Positions 1,231 to 46,961 are shown, counted from the first letter of the stretch. The stretch is 64,000 bases of DNA from Fidelibacterota bacterium (GCA_038280095.1 JAYPYG010000003.1:5049-69048); one strand, 5' to 3'. The notes: generated from the sequence alone by a model not told the origin. Numbers and translations are program-made.

Positions 1231-1971
1231 TTGAATTTTATCAAAACATATTTCTTTGCATTAATACTCTTCTTAACAAATCTTTTATCTCAAGAGAATT
1301 TCTTAGTTGAAACTAAAATAAATGCCTCTTTTAAAATGGGGTCCATGCAATCTGCATCAAAAACTATTTACTCTGAAGATACATTTTTTTCAAATGTTGA
1401 GTTTGCATTTAAGGGTAAAGGTGTTGCACGACTAATGAGTAGAGAAATGCATACTGGAACTATTATTTCATTAAATGATTCTACTGTATCAAATATTGAT
1501 TTCAAGAAGAAAAAATATTCGATAAAAACATTTAATGAAATTCTTAAGGATAAAGAAAACAAAGAAAATCAGAGCGAAAATGATAATCAAGATAATGCTG
1601 ATAATGAAAATATTAACGAAGAATTAAAATTTATTATTTCTGAAGAATCAGAATTAATAAATGGATTTAAATCTTACAAGCTCACAATTGAAAGGGATGG
1701 AACTAATGAAATTTGGTTTTCAAAAACTCTAAGAGAACCTGATTTTGTAATAAAGATTAAAAATGAAATTTCGGAGTTTCAAAATAGTTGGGCAGATATG
1801 TCAATTGATCTAACCGAATACGGAATAGATAAGAATTCTATAATTGTTAAAATGTCTACAGAAAGCGAAGATGGAAATTTTAATTTTGATTTAATTTCTT
1901 TTCAAAAATTTTTAGGGGATGACGAAGAATTAAAAGTACCTGAAGATTATAAAAAAGTTAGAAAAATCTAA
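1231..1971 (+). CDS. hypothetical secreted protein with an acidic N/D/E-rich insert
   Basis: TTG start gives a plausible signal peptide (MNFIKTYFFALILFLTNLLS|QENF). Internal low-complexity stretch ENKENQSENDNQDNADNENINEE. I recognise no family. Confidence 0.5.
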   Translation: MNFIKTYFFALILFLTNLLSQENFLVETKINASFKMGSMQSASKTIYSEDTFFSNVEFAFKGKGVARLMSREMHTGTIISLNDSTVSNIDFKKKKYSIKTFNEILKDKENKENQSENDNQDNADNENINEELKFIISEESELINGFKSYKLTIERDGTNEIWFSKTLREPDFVIKIKNEISEFQNSWADMSIDLTEYGIDKNSIIVKMSTESEDGNFNFDLISFQKFLGDDEELKVPEDYKKVRKI

Positions 1972-2711
1972 TTATTTTTTTTAATAATATTATTCATATC
2001 TTGAAATAATTTCTCTTCTCTCTTGAATGGCCTATCTAATAAAATGCCCCTATTAAATAAATCATATGCTTTTTCTTCGTTGCCTAGTTTTAAATGAGTT
2101 TTTCCAAGCCAGTAATATGTGCCTATATAATCTGGATTTAGCTCTAAACTCTTCTCTAAAAAAAATCTTGCTTGCTCAAAAGAACCTTTTGGAGGTTCTG
2201 AAAAAAGAAATGATGCTATTCTTCGCGATGCTTTACCTAAGCTGGCAAGCTTATAGTGCCATTGTCCCATTATATTATAGCAAAATTCATCATCTGGTAA
2301 TAGCTCAATAACTTTCAATGATAACTCTTCAATGTTCTTTGATTGTTCTATTTGCTCTCTAATACTTTCTTGCTCAACGGTTTTACCTAAAGCAATAACA
2401 TACCATTTTAATACATTTGGATCCTTAGAGTTCAGACTAAACGCACGATCAATGTATTTAAATGCTTTTTGACTATTTTCTTTATCTTCTTTTTGTTGAA
2501 TTGCTTTTTCAGATAAGTAGTGATGAGTAATCGATAATCTCAAGAGAACATTAGTATTTTGAGGATATTTATTATAAAGTTGCTCAAGAAGTTCTTGAGC
2601 TTTATCAAACTCGAGATTAGTAAGCTTAATATCAATATCTTTAAAATCTTGACCGGAAATTAGTGAAAATAAAATGATTCCTATAAATAGATTTTTAAAA
2701 GAAAAAATCAA
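1968..2711 (-). CDS. TPR-like repeat protein, secreted
   Basis: Signal peptide ...FSLISG|QDFKD. Helical-repeat sequence with TPR-like A/Y/L spacing (e.g. PDYIGTYYWLGKTHLKLGNEEKAYDLF). Last gene of the minus-strand sprA run. Confidence 0.6.
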   Translation of the reverse strand: MIFSFKNLFIGIILFSLISGQDFKDIDIKLTNLEFDKAQELLEQLYNKYPQNTNVLLRLSITHHYLSEKAIQQKEDKENSQKAFKYIDRAFSLNSKDPNVLKWYVIALGKTVEQESIREQIEQSKNIEELSLKVIELLPDDEFCYNIMGQWHYKLASLGKASRRIASFLFSEPPKGSFEQARFFLEKSLELNPDYIGTYYWLGKTHLKLGNEEKAYDLFNRGILLDRPFKREEKLFQDMNNIIKKNN

Positions 2712-3736
2712 GGATAAAATCTATAGATTACTGGCTGATGATCAGAAATTCTATTTGATACATTGTTATTGGATGCACCTGTTTGAGCTGGTAAAGCAAT
2801 TACTTCTACCGATGATGTTGCTTGATAAGAAAACAAAGGCTCATTAATAATAATATGATCTAAATGAGATGCAGCATATGAACTTGTCCAACCTTGCCAA
2901 GAATAACCACTAGCAGGCCCTTGAAGAATATTTAAATCTGTTAATCTAAAAGAATCAGCAGAATCAAAAGATTCAGAGTCAGTAAAGGGACTTAAAGTTG
3001 GATTAGTTATACTTTGAGCACCAACATTATTAAAATCTCCAACCAATATCACATTATCATTTTCTCTATTATTTATTAAATAATCTGCTAAAAGAAGGCT
3101 TGCATGATGTCTTCTGGTTGCTTCATTGGTTAAATTAGAAGCATCGTAATTATCATTTCCACAACACTTATAATGAACATTTATGACATAAAGATTCATA
3201 GATTTAGTACCGTCGGTCCAAGTAATATAGCTTTCCATAGGAGGTCTGCTTGCGAATTGATATAATTCGCAATTAAGGTAATCACCATTACAGTCACTTG
3301 ATGAATTTGGGGTATCAGCCCACAATTCATTTTTTGATACATATGTAATATTTTCATTCTTGTATACAAGAGCAAAACCAAGATTGCCCGACTCTTCATC
3401 CAAAACATATGAATAATCTGACATTGAATTAACCATGCTTATTAACTCAGATTCACTAGAAATTTCTTGCAGTAAATAAACATCAGCATTCCATTTTTCA
3501 AGTAAAGATTTAACCTGTTCTTTAGTAGAACTATGCTGAGGAAATTGTCTGATATTCCAAGTAACTACCTCAAACTGATTTGCAACATTATAATTAATTG
3601 CGTTTGGAAATTCATAGGGGTTCGCATTGTCTCCTTCTCCATTATCACCTTCTGAATCTGTTGGAGAATTTCCTCCACCAGAACATGCAAGAATCAAAAC
3701 AATTAGTAATAAATATTTTTTGAATAACTTAATCAT
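2708..3736 (-). CDS. endonuclease/exonuclease/phosphatase (EEP) family lipoprotein
   Basis: Lipobox LILAC|SGGG. N-terminal VVTWNIRQF (EEP Asn/Glu region), GDFN motif (VILVGDFNNV) and C-terminal SDHQPV catalytic His motif. Confidence 0.75.
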   Translation of the reverse strand: MIKLFKKYLLLIVLILACSGGGNSPTDSEGDNGEGDNANPYEFPNAINYNVANQFEVVTWNIRQFPQHSSTKEQVKSLLEKWNADVYLLQEISSESELISMVNSMSDYSYVLDEESGNLGFALVYKNENITYVSKNELWADTPNSSSDCNGDYLNCELYQFASRPPMESYITWTDGTKSMNLYVINVHYKCCGNDNYDASNLTNEATRRHHASLLLADYLINNRENDNVILVGDFNNVGAQSITNPTLSPFTDSESFDSADSFRLTDLNILQGPASGYSWQGWTSSYAASHLDHIIINEPLFSYQATSSVEVIALPAQTGASNNNVSNRISDHQPVIYRFYP

Positions 3737-4631
3737 AGATGTAATTTAATAATAAAGTTCCAACTTGTTCCAAGCTTTGTGGTGAACAATTCTCAACAAT
3801 ATCATTTTGAGTATGCCAGTAATTATAGAAAGGGTTAGGATAATCAAAATCTATAATGTCAATTGCAGGTATTTGAGCATTTTCCCAAAGAGGAACATGA
3901 TCATCATAAATCTCATAACCCAACGTATAGTTAAAAGCTTCTAAATCGAGTTCTTCGGCTAGACTCCAAAGCTCTTTAACTAAATCTGGATTGGTTTTAT
4001 AAGAAAATCTTTCGATTGGTATTTTCAAGTTTTTATCTCCAACCATATCGACAATTATTGCATTTTGAGGTTTCTTGATAGGAAGATTTTTTGAAAAATA
4101 CTCAGAACCCATCGCAAATGTTGTTGGTTGTCCAGAAATACCAACATCTTCAGCATCAAAAAACACTAAATCAATACCAATTGGAGGAGGATTATCTCTA
4201 AATACTAAAGCTAGCTCCATTAATACAGCAGTACCGCTTGCACCATCGTTCGCACCTAAAACTGGAAGTTCTCTTTTATCTAAGTCAGTCTCTTCATCAG
4301 AAATTGACCTAGTATCCCAATGAGCACCGATTAATAGTCGCTCATCTGATTCTTTATTAAACTGAATAATAAAATTTTTTCCATTTTGCATTTTTGAAGT
4401 AATATGCTCTTTATAGTTAAAATTCTGTATAATCATTTTATTATCAATCTCATTCAAAAATTCTTCTAAATATTTTGAAAATTGTTGATGGCCAATAGAC
4501 CCGGGATTTCGAGGTCCAAATTCACATTGTTTTAATAAAAAATCATATGAATGCTTCCCATCAAACTGTGGAATATCATTTTTTTCACAACTGTAAATAA
4601 AAAATATAAAGATTAAAATTAAGATTCTCAT
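3729..4631 (-). CDS. M28-family zinc enzyme, glutaminyl-peptide cyclotransferase-like
   Basis: Lipobox FIYSC. Motifs GPRNPGS, IGAHWDTR, GANDGASGTAVLMELA and FFDAEDVG fit the M28 fold in its glutaminyl-cyclase-like form. 8-nt overlap with the EEP gene, and 9 nt downstream of sprA. Confidence 0.6.
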   Translation of the reverse strand: MRILILIFIFFIYSCEKNDIPQFDGKHSYDFLLKQCEFGPRNPGSIGHQQFSKYLEEFLNEIDNKMIIQNFNYKEHITSKMQNGKNFIIQFNKESDERLLIGAHWDTRSISDEETDLDKRELPVLGANDGASGTAVLMELALVFRDNPPPIGIDLVFFDAEDVGISGQPTTFAMGSEYFSKNLPIKKPQNAIIVDMVGDKNLKIPIERFSYKTNPDLVKELWSLAEELDLEAFNYTLGYEIYDDHVPLWENAQIPAIDIIDFDYPNPFYNYWHTQNDIVENCSPQSLEQVGTLLLNYIYD

Positions 4632-4640
4632 TTGTTACCT

Positions 4641-7600
4641 TTATCTGATTGAAATATTAAGAGTTAATCCAAAATCTCTATCAACTCTTTTACCTGTTAA
4701 TCTTGTCTCGTTAGTTCGATATTCATAAAACATTCCTGCAGTAACATCATTAGTTAAGGAGTATGTTAATCGAATAACTCCTTTTCTAGTTTTTGTATAA
4801 TTTTGTTCCACAAAATTAATTTTATCCTTAGATCCTTTTTCTGAACTATTATTTAAATCAAAATTGAAATTAATATTAAAGTCATTATTCAAGTAAACAT
4901 TTCTATCCGAAAATGGTAAAGAAATCCTTAAACCCTTTGCAAAACTATAAGATAAACTTCCTAGTAAACTATTCTTTTTAACTAAGGTCATTCCAAAAGG
5001 TACCTCTCTTAGACTTAATACTGTATTTGCTCTAATATTAGTTGATATACCGTTTCGAAATGAAGTTGTTAAGCCTACAATTGGAGATAAAGAACTTGTG
5101 AGATTTGAAAATTGTAATGAATCTCCGAATTCATCTTTGAAATCCTCAACTTTCATTAAACTAATGCCTCTTATGCCGCTATCATTGAATTTCCATGATA
5201 GATTTTGCCTTCCTGTATATGAATGCTCAAGACTCATAGACTGAACATAAGGATTTATAATAGCTATATTTTCTAATCCGCTAATCCTTAGAGACCAATT
5301 AATAAATGGCAAACCTTTTGAAAGATTTTTACCATAGGAAAAATAATCTGTTGATGAAGATCTTGTATCAATATTAAATCCATTAATATTTGATGAAATA
5401 TTTTGATTAAAAGAAAAATTTAAGGATGTTCTTTGGTCTATTCTAACTCCAGTTCTAAATGATAAACTTTTCTTTTGATCATCAAAACCAGTATTAAATC
5501 CAACCTCTGAAACTGGATTAATTCCCAAATTATCTTCTAATCCTAATCTGTAGGATAATGGTATTTCTCCGTTAATACCATTTGAAATAATATTACTTAA
5601 ATTTGAAAAATTAATATTTATTGTGTCAATTTTTTTCGATTGATCGTAAAGTTTTTTTAAGATGGATTCACTATTATTTCTTGAATCTTCGTTTATTAAA
5701 TTAAAGTTTGAACGAGATCTTGTGCGTGGATTTTTTTCGCCTTTACTATGCTCGTCGTAAAATATTGATAGAATGTCTTGTGGTGTTATTGATAAACTTA
5801 AAGAAATATTCCTATTTAAATTTAAATTAGCTGCATCGATAATATTATCCCGAGGTTTATTCCATCTAAAATTAGATGAGTAACTAAATCTTGGATTAAT
5901 AATTTTTATCCAATCAGGATTAAAACGGTATACAAAAGACTCAACTGATTGGGTCTTTAATCCTATGGTAAAGTCATTAAAACTTTCATTTGGCTTAGCA
6001 CTAAAAATGGTTTTATCATAAGCAAATTCCGTATCGTTAAAAAGCTTATAGTCAATACTGAAATTTCTTTGGACATCAAAGTTCTCTTCTTTAATTAGTT
6101 CTGCATTTGATCTAGAATCTCTGGTTGTTGAGACTTTATTAATTTTAATTCCAGTTGAAAAATTTGATGGGGAATAGTAGAATTTTTTACTGCTAATTTC
6201 TTTTCCAATCAAAGGGAATTTCTTCATCCATGTAAATGCGTTTATATAGTTACCACTAGGAAATCTCAAATTGTAATCAATATTAGAATTTATATTTTTT
6301 AAATCTACAGATTTCATTATTGTATCTGATCTTTGTTGATCAGAAATACTAAATCCAGCACTTAAATTATCTATTGTATATTTTAATAATGCTTTTTCAG
6401 ATTTAATTTTCTTTGAAATTCTTCCAGAAACATTTACAACAGAAGATTGCACTAAAACAGAATCTGGTGCAGAATTTTCCAATCTTATATCTGATCCAGG
6501 TAAAAATTTTGGAGTATTTTTATTTGAATTGTAACTAATGTTTATAGGGAAAATAATGCCGAAATTTTCTGGTAGCAACTGACCGAAATTAAAATTATTT
6601 GTGTAGGATAAGGTTTCAATAGAGTTATTCGTACCAACTCTCTCTTGCAAAACATGGAAATCTGCATCTCTTTTACTATAATTAATTGAACTTGAACTAA
6701 AATTAGATAAGTTGAATTTCGATTTTATTCTTACAGCAGAACCAGATTCTTTTTTAACTCCACTAAGTCTTAATTCATCAGCCCATATTTCTCCTGATAT
6801 AGGATAATTGGCTGAATTCTCAATACCAATAATAAAATATTGTAATCTTGAAAGTGAAGGATTACCAACAATTTCGACACTTTTGTAATTATGGTTATCA
6901 TCAGATATAAATTCATAATTAATAGATTCGCTAGTTTTGGAAAAAATATCATTTGGATTAATTAAATTAATTGAAGTGTCATCATGTGTCTTAAGACTGG
7001 ATAACCAATTTAAATCTAAATTGATTTCATTTCTTTTTCTTTCTTCATCCCACCCAGAATAAATTGGTTTTGTAAGCTTATAATATTCTTGACCATTCCC
7101 AAATTTAATAAAAATGTTTACATCTGTTTGCTCAGTTGAAGAATATTCACTATTTCCATATACGAACATTTTCATTCTATCATACATCAAGAAGCTTTGG
7201 CCTATATCTTCATTAATTGAAAGTATTTTTTTTGCTGCAGCTTTATAGTTAGAGAGCAAATTATCAAATTTCAATACAATAGATTGTTCTTTTGATCTGA
7301 TTTGGTTAATCCTATCATATTCACCTACAACGCCCTTGGGAGGGATATAATTTGGGTTATCTTCATCGTTAATAACCGAAACTAGAAAAGTGCTATCCTG
7401 TGTAGTATATACCTCTTCTGATTGTAATGAGACTCCTAGCTCTTGCCAATTGTTTCCAACCAACTCAATTCTTGCAATTTCTAAAGTTGATTCCTGTTCA
7501 ACTCCCGAAACTACCAATCTAACATATTTTATTTCACTCAATGAAATATCATTGATTTTTTCAAAATGACTAATTGGAATTCTGATCAGTTTCCATCCTG

Positions 7601-10600
7601 TTTTGATACCACTTATTTCTGTTGAACCAGCAACATAAGTATCATCACTTAAAGAGACAGTTTTTGAAAAATAATTATTTGCTCTATCAAGATATCCCGA
7701 CTTATCTAAATCTTCTGAATCAGGATATTTACCACCAATTTGAATTCTATCTCCGGTACCATTACCTTCAGTACCGTTAACTTTTGTATAATCATCAGAT
7801 CCTTCAAAATAATTCCAATTATCATTATTTGGGTCATTGATATCAACGTCAATCGAATTGTTGATTAATGTTGATTCACCAGATTCTAAATATTGATTAA
7901 AAGTGGGTCCTTGAGAATCTAAACAACCTCCAAAACCATTTTCATAAATATCAAAACAACCGTCAAGACCTGTATCTTCGTTCTCATCAAGAAAACCATT
8001 TCCAAGGGCAAGTCCTGCATCAGGAATATCTTCAGTATTTAAAAAACCATTTCCATCATAATCTTCGCTGATTTTTCCTAAATCAATTGTGAGATTACCG
8101 CTATCTCCTCTTACCCATATTTCAAAAAACCTACTTCTAGTTTGATCATAATCTCCAATGAACATTGGTGAAGTAATCCCGGCCCATAATGAATCTGAAG
8201 GTACAGTAGATTGATAATCTTTAGGAGAGTATTTTAAAACTAAAATATCTGTTGTTAAATTTTGAGCTCTTTGAGAAGTAGAAATGTTAGGCCAAATACT
8301 GTTTGTTAAAACTTGTGAATAGGGGTTATACCAGTACATATTCATTCTGTGATTTTGATTGTAATCTTCAAATGAATTACTATTCAAAGGTGCAGATGAA
8401 ATATTCCAAAATCTTCGTAAAATTGAAGGATTAGTAACTCTTTTTGAACCCTCAAAATCATCAATAAATGCCACACCATTTTTATCGTCAGTTTTTGAGT
8501 TTGATATTGAATTTGGATTTGGAAGTACCTGTGCTAACTCCCCTTCAATAGAAAAATTAGAGATTTTGTTGCTATTCATAAAGCTTAAATCATTAAATCT
8601 TTCTGATAAGTTTTCTAAATCTACTTCATATCTACCATTAATATCCCAAATGAAATTTCTTATTGGCTCATACCCAACCTCAACTTTTTTATTTGCAATT
8701 GATTGATCATAATATAACGCTGTAAAACCAAGGAATGATTTTTCATCAAAATCAATTTGTGCTCTAGAGCCTGCCATAATCTTTCTATCAAAAGTAACTA
8801 AGTCATGCTTATCATACGATATTCTTAAATTATCATCTGGGTTAATATTTTCTGATAAAGTAATAGTACCAGAAAAATAATTTATTTGATAGTCTCGACC
8901 CCTTATTAGTTTATTCCCATTAGAAAAAATCTCTTCGCTTCCTTCAACGAGAGTAAATCCTAAGTTAATAGATTTCTTTGGACTGGAATAATTTACAAAA
9001 ATGGAAAATCTTGAATCACCAGCATATTCAGACAATATTGTGGAAGAGTACATTAAACCTTGCTGTAAAAATGGTTCAAGAGATTCATTATTATTACCTC
9101 CACTAATATCATTTGAAGATACAAATGGTAATAAAGCTGGTAAAAGTATCTCACCTGATTGTAAATCGATAATATTTGGATTATTATAATCAATTAATTC
9201 ATCTGGTGAACTTTCACCATTTTGATTTAGATTATCTAAACCAAAAAGATTTAAAAAAGTTATTCCGTCATTTGAGCGATCACTTTTTGGGGTTGAAAAA
9301 TTATCAATAATTCTTACTTCTAAACTTGATATATCTAAATTTGATGATCCAATGGAGTATACATTTTTAAACATTAAATCCCAGGTAGGATGACTTGGAT
9401 GTGGAGACTGAGATTTAATCATTTTAAGCTCTAACGTATTTTGGTCCAAACTAATATTTTTCCCGATATTTAAAATTGTTTCTCCAGTTTCTCTATTTAT
9501 TAAATCAAAATGAGCAGCAATAATTTCATTTTGTAGAACTTTAGTCATTTTTATAAATCCAAGATCTTCATTTATTATGTAATCGGTTCCACGTTCCAAC
9601 TTTAAAAAATTTCCTTCTTTACTTTCATCCGACTCTTCATTTTTATTAAGGGGGTTGATGTAGGCAGTACCAGGATCTGCTTCTGGATTATTTGATGCAT
9701 CAATTTTATACAATTCAAAGTTTTTTATAGAAATATTTCCTATAGGATGTAAACCATCTACTAAAGGATAAAATGAAGGTACATTGAGCTGGAAGCCACT
9801 ATCTTGAAGTATTTCATTTGAACCATTACGAAACCACTCATGTACAAAAAAGTATAAATTTTTCTTATAACTGTAGTCCTTTATTTCTATTGAATTCAAT
9901 TCAGAACTACCCTTATATAGCTGTGATTCTTTTTCGGTTTTTTCAATGGAAGCAATTGATGTTATGTTAAGTGGACCTAATTGAGAAAGTGCTTTGACTC
10001 CAAAAAGACCATTATTAGTACCAGAAAAAGTTACAAACTCCGTTGAGGGCAATGATAAAGATATATTTCCTACTTCTAAGCGTTTAAGGATATCATCTTC
10101 ACCGCCGCTATATTCAAGTCTAATAGTATTTTCCCAATCGAAATCTCTTTCTGAATTCTGATCTAAAGAAACTGTTATTCTTTCTCCAACACTTCCCTGA
10201 ACGCTAAGTTGCTGCTTTTGATCAAATTTAAAATTGGTTTTTTCTTGCTCCTTATAAGAAGATCGAACTAATTCTTGATCTTGATTTACTAACTTTGCAG
10301 AGAGGTTTATATTCCCAGATATTTGTAAAGACGCTCTTCCTAATGCGCCTAAATCTATTGAGGCAACTTGTAAATATTTATCATCTTTATTATTAGAAAT
10401 ATCATACTGCATCTTAAATGCATTTGCAATATTATACTTTTGATTTTTTGTCAATAAGTCATTTAAATAATTTTCAAAAGTATTTGTATATGGGATTGAA
10501 CGAAAATCGTTCTCTAAGTCTTTATAAATTTTAATGGATGTAAAAGATTGATCTATAAATACAACATTTGTATTTAAATCTAAATCAAAGATACCAATTG

Positions 10601-10733
10601 GATAATTGGAAATATCATTAAATGAAAAATTGATATTTTTCTTTTTAGCAAATGGATCAATGAAATAATTATCAAAATTACCAGCAAGCAATAAAGAATT
10701 GAAAAAAAGAATTGTATATAAAAGAATTCTCAT
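4641..10733 (-). CDS. sprA: type IX secretion system outer-membrane translocon SprA/Sov
   Basis: 2030-aa beta-rich protein with a signal peptide. The N-terminal block LEYSGGEDDILKRLEVGNISLSLPSTEFV...LFGVKALSQLGPLNITSIAS...YKKNLYFFVHEWFRN matches my memory of the conserved SprA N-terminal region. Size and composition fit a giant OM barrel. Confidence 0.8.
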   Translation of the reverse strand: MRILLYTILFFNSLLLAGNFDNYFIDPFAKKKNINFSFNDISNYPIGIFDLDLNTNVVFIDQSFTSIKIYKDLENDFRSIPYTNTFENYLNDLLTKNQKYNIANAFKMQYDISNNKDDKYLQVASIDLGALGRASLQISGNINLSAKLVNQDQELVRSSYKEQEKTNFKFDQKQQLSVQGSVGERITVSLDQNSERDFDWENTIRLEYSGGEDDILKRLEVGNISLSLPSTEFVTFSGTNNGLFGVKALSQLGPLNITSIASIEKTEKESQLYKGSSELNSIEIKDYSYKKNLYFFVHEWFRNGSNEILQDSGFQLNVPSFYPLVDGLHPIGNISIKNFELYKIDASNNPEADPGTAYINPLNKNEESDESKEGNFLKLERGTDYIINEDLGFIKMTKVLQNEIIAAHFDLINRETGETILNIGKNISLDQNTLELKMIKSQSPHPSHPTWDLMFKNVYSIGSSNLDISSLEVRIIDNFSTPKSDRSNDGITFLNLFGLDNLNQNGESSPDELIDYNNPNIIDLQSGEILLPALLPFVSSNDISGGNNNESLEPFLQQGLMYSSTILSEYAGDSRFSIFVNYSSPKKSINLGFTLVEGSEEIFSNGNKLIRGRDYQINYFSGTITLSENINPDDNLRISYDKHDLVTFDRKIMAGSRAQIDFDEKSFLGFTALYYDQSIANKKVEVGYEPIRNFIWDINGRYEVDLENLSERFNDLSFMNSNKISNFSIEGELAQVLPNPNSISNSKTDDKNGVAFIDDFEGSKRVTNPSILRRFWNISSAPLNSNSFEDYNQNHRMNMYWYNPYSQVLTNSIWPNISTSQRAQNLTTDILVLKYSPKDYQSTVPSDSLWAGITSPMFIGDYDQTRSRFFEIWVRGDSGNLTIDLGKISEDYDGNGFLNTEDIPDAGLALGNGFLDENEDTGLDGCFDIYENGFGGCLDSQGPTFNQYLESGESTLINNSIDVDINDPNNDNWNYFEGSDDYTKVNGTEGNGTGDRIQIGGKYPDSEDLDKSGYLDRANNYFSKTVSLSDDTYVAGSTEISGIKTGWKLIRIPISHFEKINDISLSEIKYVRLVVSGVEQESTLEIARIELVGNNWQELGVSLQSEEVYTTQDSTFLVSVINDEDNPNYIPPKGVVGEYDRINQIRSKEQSIVLKFDNLLSNYKAAAKKILSINEDIGQSFLMYDRMKMFVYGNSEYSSTEQTDVNIFIKFGNGQEYYKLTKPIYSGWDEERKRNEINLDLNWLSSLKTHDDTSINLINPNDIFSKTSESINYEFISDDNHNYKSVEIVGNPSLSRLQYFIIGIENSANYPISGEIWADELRLSGVKKESGSAVRIKSKFNLSNFSSSSINYSKRDADFHVLQERVGTNNSIETLSYTNNFNFGQLLPENFGIIFPINISYNSNKNTPKFLPGSDIRLENSAPDSVLVQSSVVNVSGRISKKIKSEKALLKYTIDNLSAGFSISDQQRSDTIMKSVDLKNINSNIDYNLRFPSGNYINAFTWMKKFPLIGKEISSKKFYYSPSNFSTGIKINKVSTTRDSRSNAELIKEENFDVQRNFSIDYKLFNDTEFAYDKTIFSAKPNESFNDFTIGLKTQSVESFVYRFNPDWIKIINPRFSYSSNFRWNKPRDNIIDAANLNLNRNISLSLSITPQDILSIFYDEHSKGEKNPRTRSRSNFNLINEDSRNNSESILKKLYDQSKKIDTININFSNLSNIISNGINGEIPLSYRLGLEDNLGINPVSEVGFNTGFDDQKKSLSFRTGVRIDQRTSLNFSFNQNISSNINGFNIDTRSSSTDYFSYGKNLSKGLPFINWSLRISGLENIAIINPYVQSMSLEHSYTGRQNLSWKFNDSGIRGISLMKVEDFKDEFGDSLQFSNLTSSLSPIVGLTTSFRNGISTNIRANTVLSLREVPFGMTLVKKNSLLGSLSYSFAKGLRISLPFSDRNVYLNNDFNINFNFDLNNSSEKGSKDKINFVEQNYTKTRKGVIRLTYSLTNDVTAGMFYEYRTNETRLTGKRVDRDFGLTLNISIR

Positions 10734-11323
10734 GGATTTAATTCGCTAATTTTTTTGATAAATTTTTGAATTGCTATACCACGGTGACTAACCTGATTTT
10801 TGACATCTGAATCCATTTCAGCTAGTGACAAATCAAATTCTGTAGAATAAAATATAGGATCATATCCAAATCCATTATTACCAACTTTAGACTTTAAAAT
10901 TTTTCCTTCAATAGTACCCTCAACATTAAAGTCATTAATACCATCAACAAAAGAAATTATTGTTCGAAATCTAGCAGTTCTTAGGTCGTCATCAATGCCA
11001 TATAATTTTTTTAAAAGTTTTGTCATATTTTCTTTATATGTTGCATTTTCTCCAGCATAACGAGCTGTATAAAGTCCCGGTGCTCCGTTCAATGCATCTA
11101 CTTCTAAAATTGTATCATCTGCAACAGACGCAATTTTTGTATAATGGAATGAAGCCGTTGATTTTATAATCGAATTTTCTTCAATAGTGTTTCCATCTTC
11201 AACTATTTCTCCAATTCCAGGAAAATCAGCTAAAGATAATATCTCATCAAAAAATGGTTGAATCTTTACAGAAATTTCAGATACTTTGTGTTTATTTGAA
11301 GTAGCAATAACAATTTTTTTCAT
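10730..11323 (-). CDS. rdgB: dITP/XTP pyrophosphatase (RdgB/HAM1 family)
   Basis: KIVIATSNKHKVSEI N-terminus, DDT..EVDALNGAPGLYTARYAG and FGYDPIF motifs. 4-nt overlap with the sprA start. Confidence 0.9.
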   Translation of the reverse strand: MKKIVIATSNKHKVSEISVKIQPFFDEILSLADFPGIGEIVEDGNTIEENSIIKSTASFHYTKIASVADDTILEVDALNGAPGLYTARYAGENATYKENMTKLLKKLYGIDDDLRTARFRTIISFVDGINDFNVEGTIEGKILKSKVGNNGFGYDPIFYSTEFDLSLAEMDSDVKNQVSHRGIAIQKFIKKISELNP

Positions 11324-11393
11324 TTCTAAAACTAAGAAATATTTATGTGTTTATTAAATAACTAATATTGCTTACCTTTTCAGGCATTTTGTT

Positions 11394-11466
<73 letters not shown>

Positions 11467-11476
11467 CTTCTTTATT

Positions 11477-12010
11477 ATGAAACTCAGTAAAAAAAATATA
11501 GCAATTATAGTTGTGACTACACTTCTTGTGGTCTTTATTGGTTCTTTTTTGAGACAACCAAAAGTCTATACATTCTATAAAGAACAATTTGTACCAAGCG
11601 ATATGGATACTGTATTTGAATTTTTTTCAAGACCTGAAAATCTTGAGAAAATAACTCCATCATCAATGGGTTTTAATATTATCACTCCAACGCCGATTGA
11701 AATGAAAGAAGGTGCTATAATTGACTATACTGTAAAAATTTTAGGAGTGCCTGTGCGCTGGAGAACTATGATTACTAGCTATAAAGAAAATGAATATTTT
11801 GTTGATGAGCAGCTTAAAGGTCCTTACAGTTACTGGCATCATAAACATACGTTTAAAGAGGTTGATGGAGGTATATTAATTATTGATGAAATAACTTATG
11901 CTTTACCAATTCAAGCCTTTCGAAGAATTGTTCATCCAATTTTGATAAAACCTCAGTTAAATCAAATCTTTGATTTCAGATTTCAAACAATTAAAGATAA
12001 ATTTAAGTAA
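11477..12010 (+). CDS. SRPBCC (START/cyclase-dehydrase-like) family protein with an N-terminal membrane anchor
   Basis: I start at ATG 11477 (MKLSKKNIAIIVVTTLLVVF), because the tracked ORF start at 11435 lies inside tRNA-Phe. FFSRPENLEKITP...YWHHKHTF resembles COG4276-type SRPBCC proteins. Confidence 0.65.
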   Translation: MKLSKKNIAIIVVTTLLVVFIGSFLRQPKVYTFYKEQFVPSDMDTVFEFFSRPENLEKITPSSMGFNIITPTPIEMKEGAIIDYTVKILGVPVRWRTMITSYKENEYFVDEQLKGPYSYWHHKHTFKEVDGGILIIDEITYALPIQAFRRIVHPILIKPQLNQIFDFRFQTIKDKFK

Positions 12011-12546
12011 TGATTAATTACATTCTTTCTAAGTCAAACATAATGATAAATTATGTCGGTTTTACGATTGTATGGTTTTCCTGTGTCTACAGTGGAGCTA
12101 AAGGAGACCCAATTATTGCTTTAATACCAACTTTTATTTTCTTATTCCTTCATTTTCTAATTGTCACAGACCATTTAAAAGAAGAAATACAACTAATTGT
12201 TATTTCTATTATCTTTGGTTTAATAGTTGACTCTAGTTTCTCTATACTTGGTTTTGTTAAATACAATGGTACATTAGATTTTGCGCCAAATCTAGCACCA
12301 CTTTGGATAGTTTGTATGTGGGCAGGTTTTACAGCTCAGATAAATCATGCTATGAAATTTTTGATCGGTAAATATCCATTAATTTGTTTCTATGGATTAC
12401 TTGCACCATTAGCATATATTGCTGGAGAAGGTATTGGCGCAGCTGTAGTTACAAATACTTATTTATCCTATGGATTTATTAGTATATCGTGGTCAATAAG
12501 TTTATTGTCTTTATTCAAAATTTCAGAATATTTAATGAGCAAATAA
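12010..12546 (+). CDS. DUF2878-like polytopic membrane protein
   Basis: About 5 hydrophobic helices, 178 aa. The family assignment is from memory of DUF2878 proteins that follow SRPBCC genes. The start is ambiguous (MINY occurs at codons 1 and 12). Confidence 0.5.
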   Translation: MINYILSKSNIMINYVGFTIVWFSCVYSGAKGDPIIALIPTFIFLFLHFLIVTDHLKEEIQLIVISIIFGLIVDSSFSILGFVKYNGTLDFAPNLAPLWIVCMWAGFTAQINHAMKFLIGKYPLICFYGLLAPLAYIAGEGIGAAVVTNTYLSYGFISISWSISLLSLFKISEYLMSK

Positions 12547-12547
12547 G

Positions 12548-13969
12548 ATGAAAAAGATTATTTTTTTAATCTCTTTAATATTTTTTGGCTGTGCATCACA
12601 AAAACCTATTGAACCTAATGAAGTTTTGGATTTTGATATTCCTGAGCAATGGGAAGTTAGCATTTCACAAAATTTAGATTTTGATCAAGAGTGGTGGAAA
12701 ATTTTTAATGACGATAATCTAAATTCTTATTTGGTTGAATTTATGGATGAAAATATAAATCTTGAAAAAGCGATGCTAAATACAAGAAAAGCCAAACAAG
12801 CATCAGTAATAGCAACTGGTAGTTTATTCCCATCAATTTCAGTAAATAGTAGTGCCGTTGAATCTGAGCAGAACACTGCAGGATTTCCTCCATTTTTTTC
12901 AACCTTATTTGGTCAATCATCTGATGAAGTAACCGTATTCACGCAAGAAAATTACAATCTATCACTTGGAACGCAATGGGAAATTGATTTGTGGGGCAAG
13001 CTTCGCCAAGGAAGAATTGCTACTAAACAACAATATCTATCTGCAATGTATTATGAAGATTTTCTTAAGCTTTCGCTGACTGCTGAGGCATCTAAGCTTT
13101 ATTTTTCAATAATTGAAGCAGAACAAGTTTTAAACAATGCATCAAAAAAACTTAAAAATGCAGAAACTATTTTTGAGCTATATTCACTTCGCTACAACAA
13201 AGGGAGTATTTCCTTACAAGCGTACCAACAATCAGAAATAATATTTAATGCAACAAAATCTGATTATAATAATAAACTTCTGATTGTTAATTCTCTTAAA
13301 AGAGAAGCAAAGTTGCTTGTAAAAGACTACCCTTCAACAGAATTTGTAGTTAACAATAACTTTCCTAAAAAATTACCAAGCATTCCAAGTACTCTACCAG
13401 CAGATATTGTCAAAAGAAGGCCAGATTTAATTGCTCAACAATATAATTTACTCGCTAATAAAGCTTTAGATAGGCAAGCTCTTCTAACTTTATTTCCAAC
13501 TTTTAGTCTTACTGGAAGTTATGGAAGCTCATCAAATGATTTAGAAGATTTAACTAATGAAGACTTTTCAGTATGGAATAAAGGATTAAACGTTTTTGTT
13601 CCAGTATTTAATGCAGGAAAACTAATTGCAAATAAAAAACTTGCTAAGACTAATAGAGAAATTGCAATGCTTGATTTTGTAAATACTTTGCTAAATGCAT
13701 ATAAGGAAGTAGAAAGTGGATTTGAATCTGATTTAATATCAGATCAAGCTTTAGAAATAATTAATCAAAATATTATTTTATCGGAAAGTATCTACGATAC
13801 AACCTTTGAAGGATTTATTAAAGGATCTTCAACCTTCGAGGATGCTATTAATGCGAATAATGCACTTTATGACAATCTAGATTTAAAAGCTCGATTAGAA
13901 AAGGTTCGCATAGAACAGAGAATAAATTTAATTTTAGCTCTTGGCGGAGGATTTAAAACAAATGATTAA
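12548..13969 (+). CDS. efflux outer-membrane factor lipoprotein (TolC/NodT family)
   Basis: Lipobox IFFGC|ASQ. Two OEP-type repeats, 473 aa. First gene of the OMF-MFP-RND trio. Confidence 0.85.
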   Translation: MKKIIFLISLIFFGCASQKPIEPNEVLDFDIPEQWEVSISQNLDFDQEWWKIFNDDNLNSYLVEFMDENINLEKAMLNTRKAKQASVIATGSLFPSISVNSSAVESEQNTAGFPPFFSTLFGQSSDEVTVFTQENYNLSLGTQWEIDLWGKLRQGRIATKQQYLSAMYYEDFLKLSLTAEASKLYFSIIEAEQVLNNASKKLKNAETIFELYSLRYNKGSISLQAYQQSEIIFNATKSDYNNKLLIVNSLKREAKLLVKDYPSTEFVVNNNFPKKLPSIPSTLPADIVKRRPDLIAQQYNLLANKALDRQALLTLFPTFSLTGSYGSSSNDLEDLTNEDFSVWNKGLNVFVPVFNAGKLIANKKLAKTNREIAMLDFVNTLLNAYKEVESGFESDLISDQALEIINQNIILSESIYDTTFEGFIKGSSTFEDAINANNALYDNLDLKARLEKVRIEQRINLILALGGGFKTND

Positions 13970-15104
13970 AAAATTAAAACCATTATTTATCTTATTAGGC
14001 GCATTTGCTATATCATATTTGTTATGGCTGCTAGGCCAGGTGCAACCTGACCCGGTAGAAGAAGCGCCAGCGCCGGACGTTATTGTTAAAATTTTAACCC
14101 CTAAAGATTTTCAAATTCAAATAAGTTCTAACGGTACAACAACGCCTCTCACCCAGACAGTATTGACTGCAGAAGTTGGTGGTGAAGTTATCTATCGTTC
14201 AAAAAAGTTTTCTGAAGGTTCATCAGTTATGGAAGGTGAAATTTTGGCAAAAATTGATGATACAGACTTACAACTACAGTACAAAAATGCTTTATTACAA
14301 TTGGCAAATGCTGAAGTACAGCATTCATTGCAATTGGCAGAAGCAGAAGTTGCCAAAGAAGCCTGGGAAAAAATAGGTGATGGTGTTGCTAGCGATTTGA
14401 CACTGAAAAAACCTCAGCTAAAGCAGGCTGAAGCATTATTGGAAGTGGCTAAAGCTCAGGTTAGTTCAGCCAAAAACAAATTAAACAAAACAGAAATCGT
14501 AGCACCTTATGCTGGCAGAATTCAAAGTGTAAATATTGATTTAGGTACAACAATTATTCCTGGACAGCCAGTTGGAGCTCTATACACTTCAAGCGAGATT
14601 GAAGTTACTTTAGCTGTAAAGGATAACGACTTGCAATTCTTGAGCATACCAATGGATGGAAGAAAGTTAGATCCAAGTGAACAAGCATTAGTTGAAATTA
14701 GAAGTTTTTATAAAGGTAAGAATCAAACTTGGATTGGGAGACTTGAAAGAGTAGACGGAGTTATAGACCCAGTTACAAGAATGATTAATCTTATTGCAGT
14801 CTTCAAAAACGATTTTATTGAAACTGATAAACCGAATCTTCCTATCGGACTATTTGTTGAAGCACAAATTGATGGTATTATATTAAAAGATATTTATTCA
14901 ATACCTATAAACGCAATTTCTGAAAATAATGAAGTATATATTGTAAATAATGATAATGAATTAGAATCAAGACAACTATCGATTCTGAAAAAATATAGTG
15001 ATTTTGTGATTGTTAAAGATGGACTGAAAGCTGGAGAAAGAATTGTCATATCTAAACTTTCAACTGCATCTAATGGAATAAAAGTTAACCCAGTATACAA
15101 ATAA
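13962..15104 (+). CDS. efflux RND periplasmic adaptor (membrane fusion protein)
   Basis: N-terminal anchor, coiled-coil hairpin (LQLANAEVQHSLQLAEAEVAKEAW...), and VAPYAGRIQSVNIDLGTTIIPGQPVGALY lipoyl/beta-barrel motif. ATG 13962 is preferred over the TTG at 13941. Confidence 0.85.
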   Translation: MIKKLKPLFILLGAFAISYLLWLLGQVQPDPVEEAPAPDVIVKILTPKDFQIQISSNGTTTPLTQTVLTAEVGGEVIYRSKKFSEGSSVMEGEILAKIDDTDLQLQYKNALLQLANAEVQHSLQLAEAEVAKEAWEKIGDGVASDLTLKKPQLKQAEALLEVAKAQVSSAKNKLNKTEIVAPYAGRIQSVNIDLGTTIIPGQPVGALYTSSEIEVTLAVKDNDLQFLSIPMDGRKLDPSEQALVEIRSFYKGKNQTWIGRLERVDGVIDPVTRMINLIAVFKNDFIETDKPNLPIGLFVEAQIDGIILKDIYSIPINAISENNEVYIVNNDNELESRQLSILKKYSDFVIVKDGLKAGERIVISKLSTASNGIKVNPVYK

Positions 15105-18100
15105 TGCGCGGAATTGTTACTTGGTTTGTAAATAATAGTGTTCCTTCTAACCTATTTATGTTTTTCTTAATAGTTGGAGGATTTTTTATATCTTATCCAT
15201 CGATAAAAGCAGAATTTTTCCCCACACCAGATCCAAAAGTAGTAACCATTGGGGTTCCTTATCCTGGTGCCTCTGCATCTGAAGTTGAAGCTTCCATTTC
15301 TTCAAAAATAGAGGATCGTCTTGAAGGCGTTGCTGGAATTAAAAAGATAAATTCAAGATCACTCGAAGGGTATGGCTATGTTGGTATTAGGGTTTTTCCT
15401 AGCGCAGATTTTGATAATACAGTTGAAGAAATAAAAACTATTATTGATGGTATTACCACTTTCCCTGAAAATAGTGAAGAACCAATCGTCAAAAAACTTG
15501 AGATTGTTGAAAAAGTTCTTGATGTAGTAATTCATGGGGATGTAGATGAAAATACTCTTTTGAGTGTTACTAAAAGTATTAACGAAGAAATAAAAAATCT
15601 TAGTGAAGTATCATTTACTGAAATTTATGGTAATAGAAATAGAGAAATATCTATAGAAATTTCTGAAAATAGTTTAGAAAAATATAACTTAACATTTGAT
15701 GAAATTGCCTTTGCAATAAACATGGGTTCGATTGATCTTCCAGGAGGGGTCATCTCAAGCACTAAAGGTGATTTACTTATTCGTACAGTTGGACAATCTT
15801 ATAAAGGATCTGAATTTGAGAATATAGTAATCAGGGCTAATCAGAATGGTAGCAAGCTCCTCTTGAAAGACATTGCTACAATTAAAGATACATTCGAAGA
15901 GGTAGATAAATTTATAAAATGGGACGGTGCTAATGCTATGTTCATTAGTGCAAATCTTGTTGGTGATCAAGACGTACTTACCGCAGCTAATCAATTAAGA
16001 AATTTTGTAAAAAATAAGAAAAATGATATGCCAAAAAATATCCAAATTGACTATTGGTATGATCAAGCAAGATTTTTAGAAGACAGAATAAATATATTAT
16101 ACAAAAATTTTGCTGTTGGAATGATTCTAGTGCTGATTCTTTTAACTATGTTTTTGAGACCATCTGTTGCATTCTGGGTTGCTATGGGAATTCCAATTTC
16201 ATTTGGAGGTGCTTTAATTTTACTTCCAATGCTTGGAGTTACAATAAATGTATTGTCAACATTTATGTTTATTGTAGTTCTTGGAATTGTAGTTGATGAT
16301 GCAATCATTGTTGGAGAAAATGTTTTCAGAAGAAGAATAAAGCTCAATGAAGACAATTTTACTTCGACTGTTAAAGGTACTATGGAAGTAATGCTTCCGG
16401 TATTTTTTGGTATTCTAACTACGATAGTTGTTTTTGCTCCCATGCTTGATTTAGCTGGAGATACCGGTCCTATTTGGAGAACTTTTCCATTAACTGCTAT
16501 ACCAATTCTTGTATTTTCTTTAATTGAATCCACAACAATTCTGCCTGCTCATTTAAATCATGCTGGAGAATGGTTTCAACATAGATTTGTAAAATTTGGT
16601 AAAGCCCTGAGTGCTGCAAGAAATTACTTTTCAGAAAAATTATATACATTCATTGACAATAAGTGGCTTCCATTGGTTAAAAAATCTATCAAGAACCGCT
16701 ATCAAACTATTTCAATTTTTGTTGGAGTACTTTTAATATCTTTTTCCTTGCTTGCTGGAGGCTGGGTAAAGTGGCAATTTTTTCCTGTTTTAGAAGCTGA
16801 AGAAATAGCAATCGTAGTTGATCTTCCTGAAGGAACGCCTATAACCACTACTGAACAGGTAACAAGAATAATTGAAGAAGAAGCTCTTAAACTCAAAAGA
16901 GAATTGAATACTGAAAATGATAAAAAAATTATTTCTCATGTTTTGACAGCTGTTGGTGACCAATATTTTAGCAACCAAGAAGCTCAGAATAGCCCTACTG
17001 GACCAACAATTCAAGCTGCTTCAACACCTCATGTTGGAGAAGTGGTGGTAATTCTTACACCTGCTGACAGTAGATGGGGTTTAACCGGAGCATACGATAT
17101 TATTAATATTTTAAGAAATAGGATTGGTATTATACCTGGTGTTGAGAGGCTAAACTTTAGTGCAAATATTTTCAGCGCTGGAAAACCAATTCATTTTGAA
17201 TTTTCAGGTAACGATTTTGATGACTTGAATCGAGTGGTCAGTCAAACTAAATCTTTATTAAGTAATTATGCTGGTGTTTATGATTTAACAGATTCAGATA
17301 AGATTGGTAAAAGTGAACTTCAAATTGAACTTCTTCCTGCAGCAGAGTCATATGGACTTACTACTGCAATGATAGCAAAACAAGTTAGGCAGGCATTTTA
17401 TGGTGAAGAAGTGCAACGAATTCAACGTCAAGATGATGATATAAGAGTTATGTTAAAGCTTACTAAAAGCGAGAGAGATAATGCTAGAACACTTGAAAAT
17501 TTGAGAATTAGGACAAATACTGGTATTAAAATTCCATTGTACGCTGTTGCAAAAGTTAAAGAAATACCAGGTAAATCTGCGATTCAAAGAATTGATGGAA
17601 AACGAGTAGTTGAAATAACTTCGGATGTAGATATTAGCAAAAATACATCCTCAATGATTCTATCTTCCATGCTTGGTCCTGAAGGAAATCCAATTAGAGA
17701 CTTTAAAAATATTTTAAGTAAAGAACAGAATGTATCATTTGCACTTGCAGGAGAAGCAGCGGAGCAGGCGGAGCAGCTTCAAGATATATTTGTAAAATTT
17801 GGTTTAGCAATTTTTACTATTTTTGTTTTATTGGCAATTCCACTTAAATCCTATTTTAAACCATTGATTATTCTATCAGCTATTCCATTTGGAATGGTTG
17901 GTGCTATTTTAGGACACCTAATGCTCTTTCAACCAATGTCTGTTTTATCATTATTAGGAGTTGTAGCTCTTTCTGGAGTTGTGGTAAATGACAGCTTACT
18001 ACTCGTAGTTTTCGTTAATAGAGCTAAAGAAAAAGGCGATAGTACATTAAAGGCTGTAACAGATGCAGTTAGATCAAGATTTAGACCAGTAATATTAACC

Positions 18101-24470: not shown

Positions 24471-24782
24471 TTACTTTAATGCGTCTAAATTATTTTTTAT
24501 TGTCTCGGTTTTTTCTTTGAGTGGATCTAACACAGAATCCTCAATGACATCACCTATTTTTTCTTCACTATTTTCAAGCTGTGTCTTGATTTCATCCATG
24601 TTGGGCAAAGGTTGATTTGTGAAAAGTAAATAAGCACAGTACAAAATAAATAAGGTTACCCCAAGTGTAACAATTTTAAATAGTTTTTTAATTACACTAA
24701 AGGTTATCATAGTAATTAAAACTATTGCTACAGCAAGATAAGCAGGATTATCCGAAATGCTATTTAACAGATTTTCTAACAT
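24471..24782 (-). CDS. hypothetical small membrane protein (2 TM)
   Basis: 103-aa ORF with two hydrophobic helices and an acidic coiled C-terminus. No family recognised. Confidence 0.45.
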   Translation of the reverse strand: MLENLLNSISDNPAYLAVAIVLITMITFSVIKKLFKIVTLGVTLFILYCAYLLFTNQPLPNMDEIKTQLENSEEKIGDVIEDSVLDPLKEKTETIKNNLDALK

Positions 24783-24819
24783 TATATCAATTTATACATT
24801 ACATTTCTACTTTACAAAG

Positions 24820-46271: not shown

Positions 46272-46273
46272 AG

Positions 46274-46618
46274 TGGAGGCGGGGAGATTCGAACTCCCGT
46301 CCAAAGTAGAGAAAAAGTAGACATCTACATGTTTAGTTTCTTGATCATATTTCACTGTATAGCTGTACAAGAACAAACAGGTATATAGCAATCTTCTAAA
46401 GGTTCACTTATTTAACCGAAGCAGGTAAATAGGCTATCTCATTTTTATGACACCATTCAGCGAACGATGAGAAACGTCTACTGATGATGGGCTTTAGCAA
46501 TTAAGCGAAAGCCATTTGGCCATTATCGGCACTTAATATAGGTTAGAAGTTTTAAGAGGTACTAAGCTCTACATGCAATCTAAGATTCCATTCTAAAATG
46601 TCGAAACCTGTCGCCCCC
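46274..46618 (-). ncRNA. ssrA: tmRNA (SsrA), one-piece
   Basis: The reverse complement starts GGGGGCGACAGGTTTCGAC and ends GGACGGGAGTTCGAATCTCCCCGCCTCCA (tRNA-Ala-like acceptor and T-arm, CCA not encoded). The candidate tag frame GCC GAT AAT GGC CAA ATG GCT TTC GCT TAA (46530-46501) encodes ADNGQMAFA*. A TACTATTTG motif lies 6 nt upstream of the 5' end. Confidence 0.9.
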
Positions 46619-46661
46619 AATTGTCAAATAGTATCGAAGATACAATATATTTTTGAAACAA

Positions 46662-46695
46662 AAAAGGCTCTGTAGCGCCAACCCCAGAGCCTTTT
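46662..46695. terminator. terminator-like GC hairpin with flanking A and T runs (orphan)
   Basis: AAAAGGCTCTG - 12-nt loop - CAGAGCCTTTT. It sits between the divergent tmRNA and tRNA-Lys genes, so it has no obvious transcript to terminate. Confidence 0.4.
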
Positions 46696-46935: not shown

Positions 46936-46961
46936 CTATTTTTGAGAAATATCTCTTAATT

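Follow-up and report, generated by a model that had tools for sequence, protein, structure and literature searches.

The Q-rule of Bacteroidetes describes the presence of glutamine directly after the type-I signal peptides of periplasmic, outer-membrane and secreted proteins (Gln(+1)), together with a gene for a glutaminyl cyclase (QC) (PMC5837995, PMC10653852). It is typical of Bacteroidetes and scattered elsewhere in the Fibrobacterota-Chlorobiota-Bacteroidota (FCB) group, and Marinimicrobia are not mentioned in this context (PMC5837995, PMC10653852). Bochtler et al. (2018, PMC5837995) pointed out a 'striking phylogenetic coincidence' between type IX secretion systems (T9SS) and high Q-values, and a continuum of Q-values outside Bacteroidetes of up to 77% in Ignavibacterium. 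In Porphyromonas gingivalis, 86% of the T9SS components and cargo carry Gln(+1), and pyroglutamate stabilises exported proteins (Mizgalska et al. 2023, PMC10653852). The QC of this species acts on all signal peptidase I substrates, and its gene is the first of the PG2157-PG2158-hemG operon (PG2157-2159) (PMC10653852). Here we describe a 64,000-nucleotide stretch of a Fidelibacterota bacterium assembly (GCA_038280095.1, JAYPYG010000003.1:5049-69048), in the following called the window, in which the gene for the T9SS translocon SprA lies directly upstream of a gene for a predicted QC of the M28 fold. The components themselves are known, but the conserved pairing of sprA and QC, its restriction to FCB lineages outside Bacteroidia and its embedding in T9SS gene clusters appear to be new. 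Full-text literature searches returned no description of a gene-order link between sprA or sov and QC, or between sprA and M28 genes, but only unrelated co-mentions; the original prediction, made from the sequence, had likewise known of no described operonic link between cyclase and secretion pore. The cluster and its upstream border comprise the following features:

10730-11323, minus strand: rdgB/Ham1, at the head of the cluster, for a non-canonical NTP pyrophosphatase (PF01725, 5.5e-55; TIGR00042, 160 bits against a cutoff of 145)
4641-10733, minus strand: sprA, 2030 aa (TIGR04189, PF14349)
4632-4643, minus strand: sprA stop codon TAA (4643-4641), 9-nt spacer and Shine-Dalgarno (SD)-like AAGGT (4641-4637), by direct sequence reading
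3729-4631, minus strand: predicted type II (bacteroidal-type) QC, M28 fold, 300 aa, predicted lipoprotein (Cys15) (PF04389, 8e-31)
2708-3736, minus strand: EEP-family lipoprotein, 342 aa, lipobox LILAC (PF03372 (Exo_endo_phos), 1.3e-12)
1968-2711, minus strand: TPR protein, 247 aa, last gene of the cluster (TPR_19, 7e-12; RMD1-3, 1e-9)
11324-11393, minus strand: 70-nt region between the rdgB start and tRNA-Phe, presumably the sole promoter room for the cluster
11394-11467, plus strand: tRNA-Phe(GAA)

Judged from its sequence and modelled fold, the 300-aa M28 protein is a type II (bacteroidal-type) QC and not an aminopeptidase, with a predicted cyclase activity and a putative mono-zinc state. 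Its best matches among PDB sequences, which include BvQC, TfQC, PdQC and PgQC, reached phmmer values of 5e-50 to 9e-43 (3gux 5e-50, TfQC 6qro 8e-49, 3tc8 6e-47, PgQC 6qql 9e-43), whereas true aminopeptidases scored only 2e-11 (YwaD) to 1e-4. For the AlphaFold2 model (pLDDT 80.6), all 50 best Foldseek matches in the PDB were QCs, with TM-scores of 0.83-0.87 to PdQC, BtQC, TfQC and PgQC. The protein shares the M28 alpha/beta fold and 33-35% identity with PgQC PG2157, TfQC, BtQC and PdQC (6qql, 6qro, 4fuu/7d1d and 3tc8) and, like PgQC, has no insertion loop after the ED motif. Its N-terminus MRILILIFIFFIYSC contains, as in the lipid-anchored PgQC, a lipobox, whose Cys15 does not vary among 23 orthologues.

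Taudte et al. (2021, PMC7948796) identified residues that distinguish bacteroidal QCs from di-zinc aminopeptidases. Zinc is bound by PgD149, PgD183 and PgH299, and the third ligand is the Asp of an E-D pair instead of the aminopeptidase E-E. The first ligand is followed by glycine (D-G) and not by Asn or Asp (D-N/D), a change associated with loss of a second zinc site, and a Trp and a Phe lie near the His ligand, where aminopeptidases harbor a Tyr and a small residue. The M28 protein of the window holds the QC-specific pairs D129-G130, E161-D162 and W272-H273, plus F268, and thus shares with bacteroidal QCs the Asp/Asp/His ligands with the Glu-to-Asp swap, the D-G pair, the catalytic Glu and the Trp beside the His ligand. 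The proposed zinc ligands D129, D162 and H273 align with PgD149, PgD183 and PgH299. E161, the proposed catalytic residue, occupies the HsE201/PgE182 position; for the acidic partners HsD248 and HsD305 there are D195 and D243, the latter matched tentatively with HsD305. Among 75 homologues, D129, E161, D162, D195, D243 and H273 show no variation; 74 share G130 and 70 share W272. In the aromatic pocket, W272 and F268 are found at the positions of PgTrp298 and PgPhe294, the alignment column of F268 being unstable; the position of PgTrp193 is taken by Phe172, is Phe, Tyr or Trp across homologues, and is Phe or Tyr in most of the QCs linked to sprA.

It could be argued that the protein is a co-catalytic di-zinc aminopeptidase which trims exported or T9SS-secreted proteins. 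It is a member of Pfam Peptidase_M28, it shares the fold and five metal-ligand-equivalent positions with the di-zinc enzymes AAP of Vibrio/Aeromonas, SgAP of Streptomyces and YwaD of Bacillus, and several of its close PDB relatives were first deposited as 'aminopeptidase'. These depositions have since been reclassified as QCs (PMC7948796). H104 and D195, whose counterparts in aminopeptidases bind a second zinc, are also retained, but this is the case in every type II QC and therefore ligand counting cannot decide the metal stoichiometry. In contrast to AAP, SgAP and YwaD, the protein has E-D for E-E, D-G for D-N/D and Trp (W272) for Tyr ahead of the His ligand, so that the co-catalytic signature (Glu-Glu, Asp-Asn/Asp, Tyr before His) is absent. 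True aminopeptidases score 30-40 orders of magnitude worse than QCs and are missing from the 50 best fold matches. An aminopeptidase function is thus highly improbable, being essentially excluded by QC-specific residues, scores and fold matches. The original prediction had pointed to the QC branch on the basis of the motifs GAHWDTR, GANDGASG and FFDAED, all of which are present; searches, fold comparison and QC-specific residues lead to the same assignment, and clustering with di-zinc aminopeptidases was not observed, the matches to QCs being far stronger.

The QC of the window differs from the described bacteroidal enzymes in its phylum, Marinimicrobia, and in the position of its gene in a predicted sprA operon rather than in PG2157-PG2158-hemG. 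Some of its deep relatives also differ in carrying type-I signal peptides that expose Gln instead of lipoboxes. Type-I signal peptides were found at the QC N-termini of loci L019, L020, L024, L031, L036, L038, L048, L050, L056 and L077, and those of deep Marinimicrobia-like, Fidelibacterota and KSB1 QCs expose Gln, e.g. LFG/QSVPFFDG and ILCG/QQIPHFNG (a slash marks the cleavage site), so in these relatives the cyclase would be its own substrate.

The 2030-aa protein encoded upstream of QC is, by its profile matches, a bona fide SprA/Sov T9SS translocon. It matches the SprA equivalog TIGR04189 with 689 bits (1.3e-206) against a cutoff of 200, and PF14349 (SprA_N) at 1.8e-33. Like SprA/Sov of Flavobacterium johnsoniae and P. 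gingivalis, it would be a giant protein of the outer membrane that exceeds 2000 aa and carries a signal peptide, and PorV/PorQ-family and C-terminal sorting domain (CTD) genes follow sprA in related loci. Unlike these proteins it occurs outside Bacteroidota, its gene is in an operon-like arrangement with rdgB and QC, and it is shorter, with 2030 aa compared to the 2319 positions of the profile, whose best match covers residues 366-1574. Cleavage of its signal peptide is predicted at LLLAG/NFDN or LLLA/GNFD, exposing Asn or Gly. Other T9SS genes were not detected within the 64-kb window, nor did a search of it reveal homologues of PorV/Q, of the families c6 and c7 described below, of the polysaccharide deacetylase, of the CTD nuclease or of prmA. 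SAR406 bins are reported to encode CTD proteins (PMC5596340).

The window belongs, based on its sequence matches, to SAR406/Marinimicrobia and thus to a lineage outside Bacteroidota proper. The QC protein is 92-96% identical to proteins from Tara Oceans and other marine metagenomes, and the locus is 92% identical at the DNA level to the single-cell genome 'Candidatus Marinimicrobia AH-287-F08' (locus L002). A lineage outside Bacteroidota had been proposed before from the usage of SD sequences. The lineage itself agrees with the Marinimicrobia matches, but the SD signal is weak (SD-like motifs in 14/51 window genes, 27%, compared to 12.5% at random positions) and was set aside as a phylum marker.

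To place the pair in a wider context, one genome per GTDB species was scanned with a QC alignment, and the best 80 QC loci, 76 of them with at least 1 kb of upstream sequence, were analyzed by tblastn, open reading frame (ORF) calling and clustering. In 47/76 testable loci, a co-directional SprA ORF of ~1950-2500 aa is the immediate upstream neighbour of QC, and its stop codon falls between -115 and +314 nt relative to the beginning of the QC alignment. Every testable Marinimicrobia-like locus has the pair, over a range of QC identities from 95% to 39%. Further carriers are a complete Fidelibacterota chromosome, KSB1, Calditrichota, Zixibacteria, Eisenbacteria, 'Zhuqueibacter' and a single clade of Ignavibacteria. 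On TIGR04189, upstream ORFs representing KSB1, Caldithrix, Eisenbacteria and Ignavibacteria reach 576-792 bits. Thus the neighbourhood survey that had been suggested along with the original prediction recovered the adjacency in related genomes as well as in several phyla. In L026 (Ignavibacteria), a second SprA-like ORF, possibly a paralogue, is located at ~14000-16100, about 4 kb downstream of the pair.

The genes upstream of sprA vary by phylum. Marinimicrobia and Fidelibacterota have rdgB (directly upstream in 22 Marinimicrobia/Fidelibacterota-like loci), KSB1 and Eisenbacteria a divergent lptF/G, and Ignavibacteria a murB-like gene. The sprA-QC pair alone is shared by all linked lineages. 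Downstream, the order sprA-QC-(prmA)-c7-c6-PorV/Q-PorV/Q is found in deep Marinimicrobia, Fidelibacterota, Calditrichota and one KSB1 genome, with CTD-bearing nucleases nearby; here QC forms part of a T9SS cluster. The conserved downstream set (L011-L018, L028, L036, L048, L051, L054, L056 and L077) consists of the lipoprotein c7, with a weak match to choice-of-anchor X, of c6 (~546 aa), which ends with a FlgD-Ig-like, CTD-like domain, of two tandem PorV/PorQ-family genes and of a divergent polysaccharide deacetylase gene (PF04748). The family c2 was assigned to PorV/PorQ (NF033709, 2e-21), and c4 carries TIGR04183.

The pair is absent from loci labelled Bacteroidota/Chitinophagaceae and from most Ignavibacteria, Kryptonia and Kapaibacteria, where QC is followed by prmA and ppx, and also from the Gemmatimonadota loci of the scan. 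In such loci of the Bacteroidota/Ignavibacteria type, prmA, which encodes the ribosomal protein L11 methyltransferase, and often ppx follow QC in the absence of sprA (L029, L032, L039, L040, L047, L053, L057, L058, L065, L067, L071 and others). Another scan, for which Bacteroidales QCs served as queries, gave 80 metagenome loci, of which 62 include 1 kb or more of upstream sequence; eight diverse SprA queries detected SprA near none of the 80 Bacteroidales-type QCs, and ORFs of at least 2000 aa were not found. In a rough, midpoint-rooted neighbour-joining tree, which was not used to derive an ancestral state, the linked QCs spread over a broad multi-phylum part. This tree is compatible with an old sprA-QC arrangement that was lost in Bacteroidota in the GTDB sense. 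In many of the loci with the sprA-QC pair, too, prmA comes after QC; QC-prmA is a second deeply conserved adjacency, whose functional logic is not obvious.

Such a distribution might reflect neutral synteny, with sprA and QC as inherited ancestral neighbours that have not yet been separated and QC as a housekeeping envelope enzyme without special ties to T9SS. This would fit the broad action of the P. gingivalis QC on signal peptidase I substrates, the Gln(+1) proteins of the window, which are not T9SS cargo, and the separation of both genes in Bacteroidales without apparent harm. QC is, moreover, equally persistently paired with prmA, an unrelated methyltransferase, so conserved adjacency alone is no proof of a shared function. 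However, the sprA-QC pair has survived down to ~40% identity of QC and 25-30% of SprA, in at least six phylum-level lineages in which all other flanking genes have changed. Most Marinimicrobia have short gaps or overlaps between the two genes (-20 to +72 nt), and in several phyla QC is located between sprA and PorV/PorQ and CTD genes. Neutral synteny is therefore considered possible but unlikely, and a selectively kept pair is preferred.

Within the window, the junctions rdgB/sprA/M28/EEP/TPR measure -4, +9, -8 and -4 nt in the ORF calls, the same values as had been predicted for these five minus-strand genes. The rdgB stop overlaps the sprA start by 4 nt and the EEP ORF overlaps the QC stop by 8 nt. 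The sprA-QC junction has the sequence TAA-AGGTAACAA-ATG; here the SD-like AAGGT spans the sprA stop codon and lies 5 nt ahead of the QC start codon ATG at 4631. This arrangement is consistent with translational coupling of sprA and QC. A terminator scan revealed no terminator-like site on the minus strand within the cluster (1968-11323). Co-transcription is a reasonable inference because of the tight junctions, the distance of 70 nt to tRNA-Phe and the absence of such internal sites, and the five genes probably form one transcript that starts in the 70-nt region upstream of rdgB. A scan for sigma-70 promoters was uninformative, since matches were no commoner than in shuffled sequence and FCB promoters deviate from the consensus. 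The five-gene order is retained in the related loci L002-L010, the EEP gene downstream of QC being conserved only in these close relatives. All five genes are under purifying selection with respect to L002 (dN/dS 0.10-0.23; sprA 0.10). The EEP lipoprotein was considered as T9SS CTD cargo and rejected, as no CTD was detected. At the other end of the cluster, the TPR gene (minus strand) converges with the gene of a DUF4412-like protein (plus strand) at 1968-1971, where their 3' ends overlap by 4 nt, and therefore no intergenic terminator space is left for either transcript.

The type-I signal peptides of the window were inspected for the residue exposed after cleavage. Besides that of SprA, they are:

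1231-1290, plus strand: signal peptide MNFIKTYFFALILFLTNLLS/QENF (LLS/QENF) of the DUF4412-like protein, Gln kept in 6/6 orthologues
start 2711, minus strand: signal peptide ISG/QDFK of the TPR protein of the cluster, Gln kept in 5/5 orthologues
24820-24906, plus strand: signal peptide ...LLNLVFA/QDKI of a large LptA/LptC-domain protein, alternative start 24820
34527-34586, plus strand: signal peptide MRKLYNMLALVVAISGFMFA/QGSV (MFA/QGSV) of a TonB-dependent receptor
40285-40344, minus strand: signal peptide MKILKYLLTITIFTSFFVFA/QDLA (VFA/QDLA) of a TPR protein
56945: signal peptide LFA/ENGP, exposing Glu

Gln(+1) is thus found in 5/7 of these signal peptides, the exceptions being SprA (Asn/Gly) and LFA/ENGP (Glu). 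If the background does not exceed 9%, as given for most Chlorobi in PMC5837995, the occurrence of at least five in seven corresponds to a binomial p of ~1e-4. All five had been recognized in the original prediction, which took their recurrence as a match to the Q-rule. Gln stays constant in the TPR and DUF4412-like orthologues of related Marinimicrobia loci, despite diverging signal peptides. Gln(+1) is also kept in most c6 proteins, CTD proteins and PorV/Q of these loci, in ~13/17 families of Marinimicrobia-like loci as judged by eye, and in SprA of deeper lineages (e.g. PAYG/QGEP, SASA/QEAD). Four SignalP-free schemes, based on rule-based cleavage, the first polar residue after the hydrophobic run and the compatibility of Gln with the -3/-1 rule, gave Gln(+1) values of 20-32% for Marinimicrobia, 7-22% for E. 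coli and 17-36% for Bacteroidales as positive control. Gln was the commonest -3/-1-compatible residue, with 20/70 in Marinimicrobia-like loci versus 2/27 in E. coli (p = 0.02), the only one of these comparisons to reach significance, and the metrics serve as weak support. Their noise stems from sites inside the hydrophobic region, from accepted cytoplasmic and membrane proteins and from E. coli signal peptides ending in A-Q-A/, whose Gln at -2 is mistaken for +1. In sum, the Q-rule likely holds in Marinimicrobia. The pattern resembles that of Bacteroidetes in the Gln after type-I signal peptides and in the presence of a QC gene; it differs from the system of the Q-rule papers in being deduced from sequence and in the additional gene linkage to T9SS.

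The embedding of QC in T9SS clusters could also mean that it is a dedicated accessory or maturation factor, with pyroglutamate needed to stabilise or handle SprA, PorV/Q or cargo and with a Q-rule that began in a T9SS module and was generalised later. The conserved sprA-QC-(...)-PorV/Q clusters, the Gln(+1) of SprA, PorV/Q, c6 and CTD cargo in deep Marinimicrobia, and the phylogenetic co-occurrence of T9SS and high Q-values (PMC5837995) would agree with such a role, as would the joint exchange of EEP, QC and sprA among close SAR406 relatives described below. But experiments in P. gingivalis gave no indication of a role in targeting (PMC5837995), QC is present in phyla without T9SS, and the Gln(+1) proteins of the window belong to the periplasm and outer membrane and have no relation to T9SS. 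A dedicated T9SS factor is accordingly regarded as rather improbable compared with a general envelope enzyme.

The window is a mosaic with respect to its closest relatives. Positions 1-2500 and ~11000-14500 show 93-99% DNA identity to the single-cell genomes L003 and L004. The block at ~2500-11000 (5' end of the TPR gene, EEP, QC, sprA, 3' part of rdgB) shares only 51-81% identity with these two versus 91-95% with L002, whose flanks are more distant from the window than this block. L003 and L004 differ from each other in the same block alone. EEP-QC-sprA thus looks like an exchangeable, highly divergent allelic cassette among near-identical SAR406 genomes. A chimeric assembly of the window contig is possible, but would not explain the difference between L003 and L004. 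Surface-structure islands are exchanged similarly in other marine bacteria, and selection on the surface-exposed SprA may possibly underlie the variability of the cassette. A more far-reaching proposal is that the Q-rule emerged as a means to protect or license the machinery and cargo of T9SS, that the original arrangement was kept in Marinimicrobia, Fidelibacterota, KSB1, Calditrichota, Zixibacteria and Eisenbacteria and secondarily uncoupled in Bacteroidia, and that SAR406 swaps sprA-QC-EEP as one co-adapted hypervariable surface cassette; it is offered tentatively and seems doubtful.

The reading that is favored, with a probability of roughly 70%, is that QC is a general envelope cyclase co-expressed with the T9SS pore, and that the sprA-QC pair is ancient and has been selectively kept outside Bacteroidia. 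Under this model the SAR406/Marinimicrobia host would follow the Q-rule, so that most of its Sec-exported proteins cut by signal peptidase I begin with Gln. The 300-aa lipoprotein would act as a membrane-anchored mono-zinc type II QC that turns Gln(+1) into pyroglutamate, which would shield exported N-termini from aminopeptidases. Transcription of the five-gene unit from the 70 nt upstream of rdgB would co-express the capping enzyme with the secretion pore. The pair would be an old, selected one in the non-Bacteroidia FCB radiation, often extended by PorV/PorQ and CTD genes and lost in Bacteroidales. T9SS parts and cargo (SprA in deeper lineages, PorV/Q, CTD proteins) would be among the clients of QC, but not the sole ones. 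Cyclase activity, metal stoichiometry, pyroglutamate formation, co-transcription and the selective reason for the linkage are all deduced from sequence in this model.

Several observations weigh against it. P. gingivalis gingipain mutants argued against a control of T9SS targeting by cyclisation (PMC5837995). The mature N-terminus of the window SprA is not Gln and 0/5 Gln(+1) proteins of the window are T9SS CTD cargo; therefore the cyclase would be a general envelope enzyme here and not a T9SS-specific one. QC homologues without sprA nearby occur in Acidobacteriota, Poribacteria and Armatimonadota, which have no known T9SS. In the set of other phyla with sprA-QC, Gln(+1) is low (8-14%), as measured by SignalP-free metrics that are insensitive, the Bacteroidales control reaching 17-36% against a literature value of ~70%. 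Co-transcription of the cluster is predicted from gene overlaps and spacing, and in other phyla some gaps between sprA stop and QC start measure ~100-200 nt, which is enough for a promoter. Finally, the sampling was centred on QC and comprises the 80 most query-like loci, so it gives no fraction of sprA genes that are followed by QC.

Some further features of the window were recorded. The tRNA-Phe(GAA) gene at 11394-11467 overlaps the 5' extension of the plus-strand ORF 11435-12010, which encodes a membrane-anchored, SRPBCC-like protein; its true start is probably an internal Met (MKLSKKN...) at ~11477. At 46273-46936, a minus-strand tmRNA gene with the tag ADNGQMAFA is followed by tRNA-Lys(TTT), and the ORF 46878-49781 starts inside this tRNA gene, its start being over-called. 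The ORF at 24757-28080 (plus strand) encodes an exported protein of 1107 aa with Gln(+1), LptC-like residues 67-167 and LptA-like residues 258-356, both below the curated cutoffs, and is an unusually large protein of the OstA/Lpt type.

So far, T9SS and the Q-rule have been treated as two separate hallmarks of Bacteroidota, and the idea of a functional link was put aside once targeting experiments in a single species had turned out negative. The occurrence of the pair in multiple phyla, often amid PorV/PorQ and cargo genes, provides independent genomic evidence for a functional tie, at least at the level of co-expression, and reopens the question whether SprA, PorV or cargo need pyroglutamate for their stability. 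In periodontitis, bacteroidal QCs are drug targets, and for this reason insights into their ancestral context and natural sequence diversity are useful. SAR406 is among the most abundant uncultured lineages of the dark ocean. Both systems would now extend to this group, where a shielding of secreted hydrolases from aminopeptidases could affect the turnover of organic matter.

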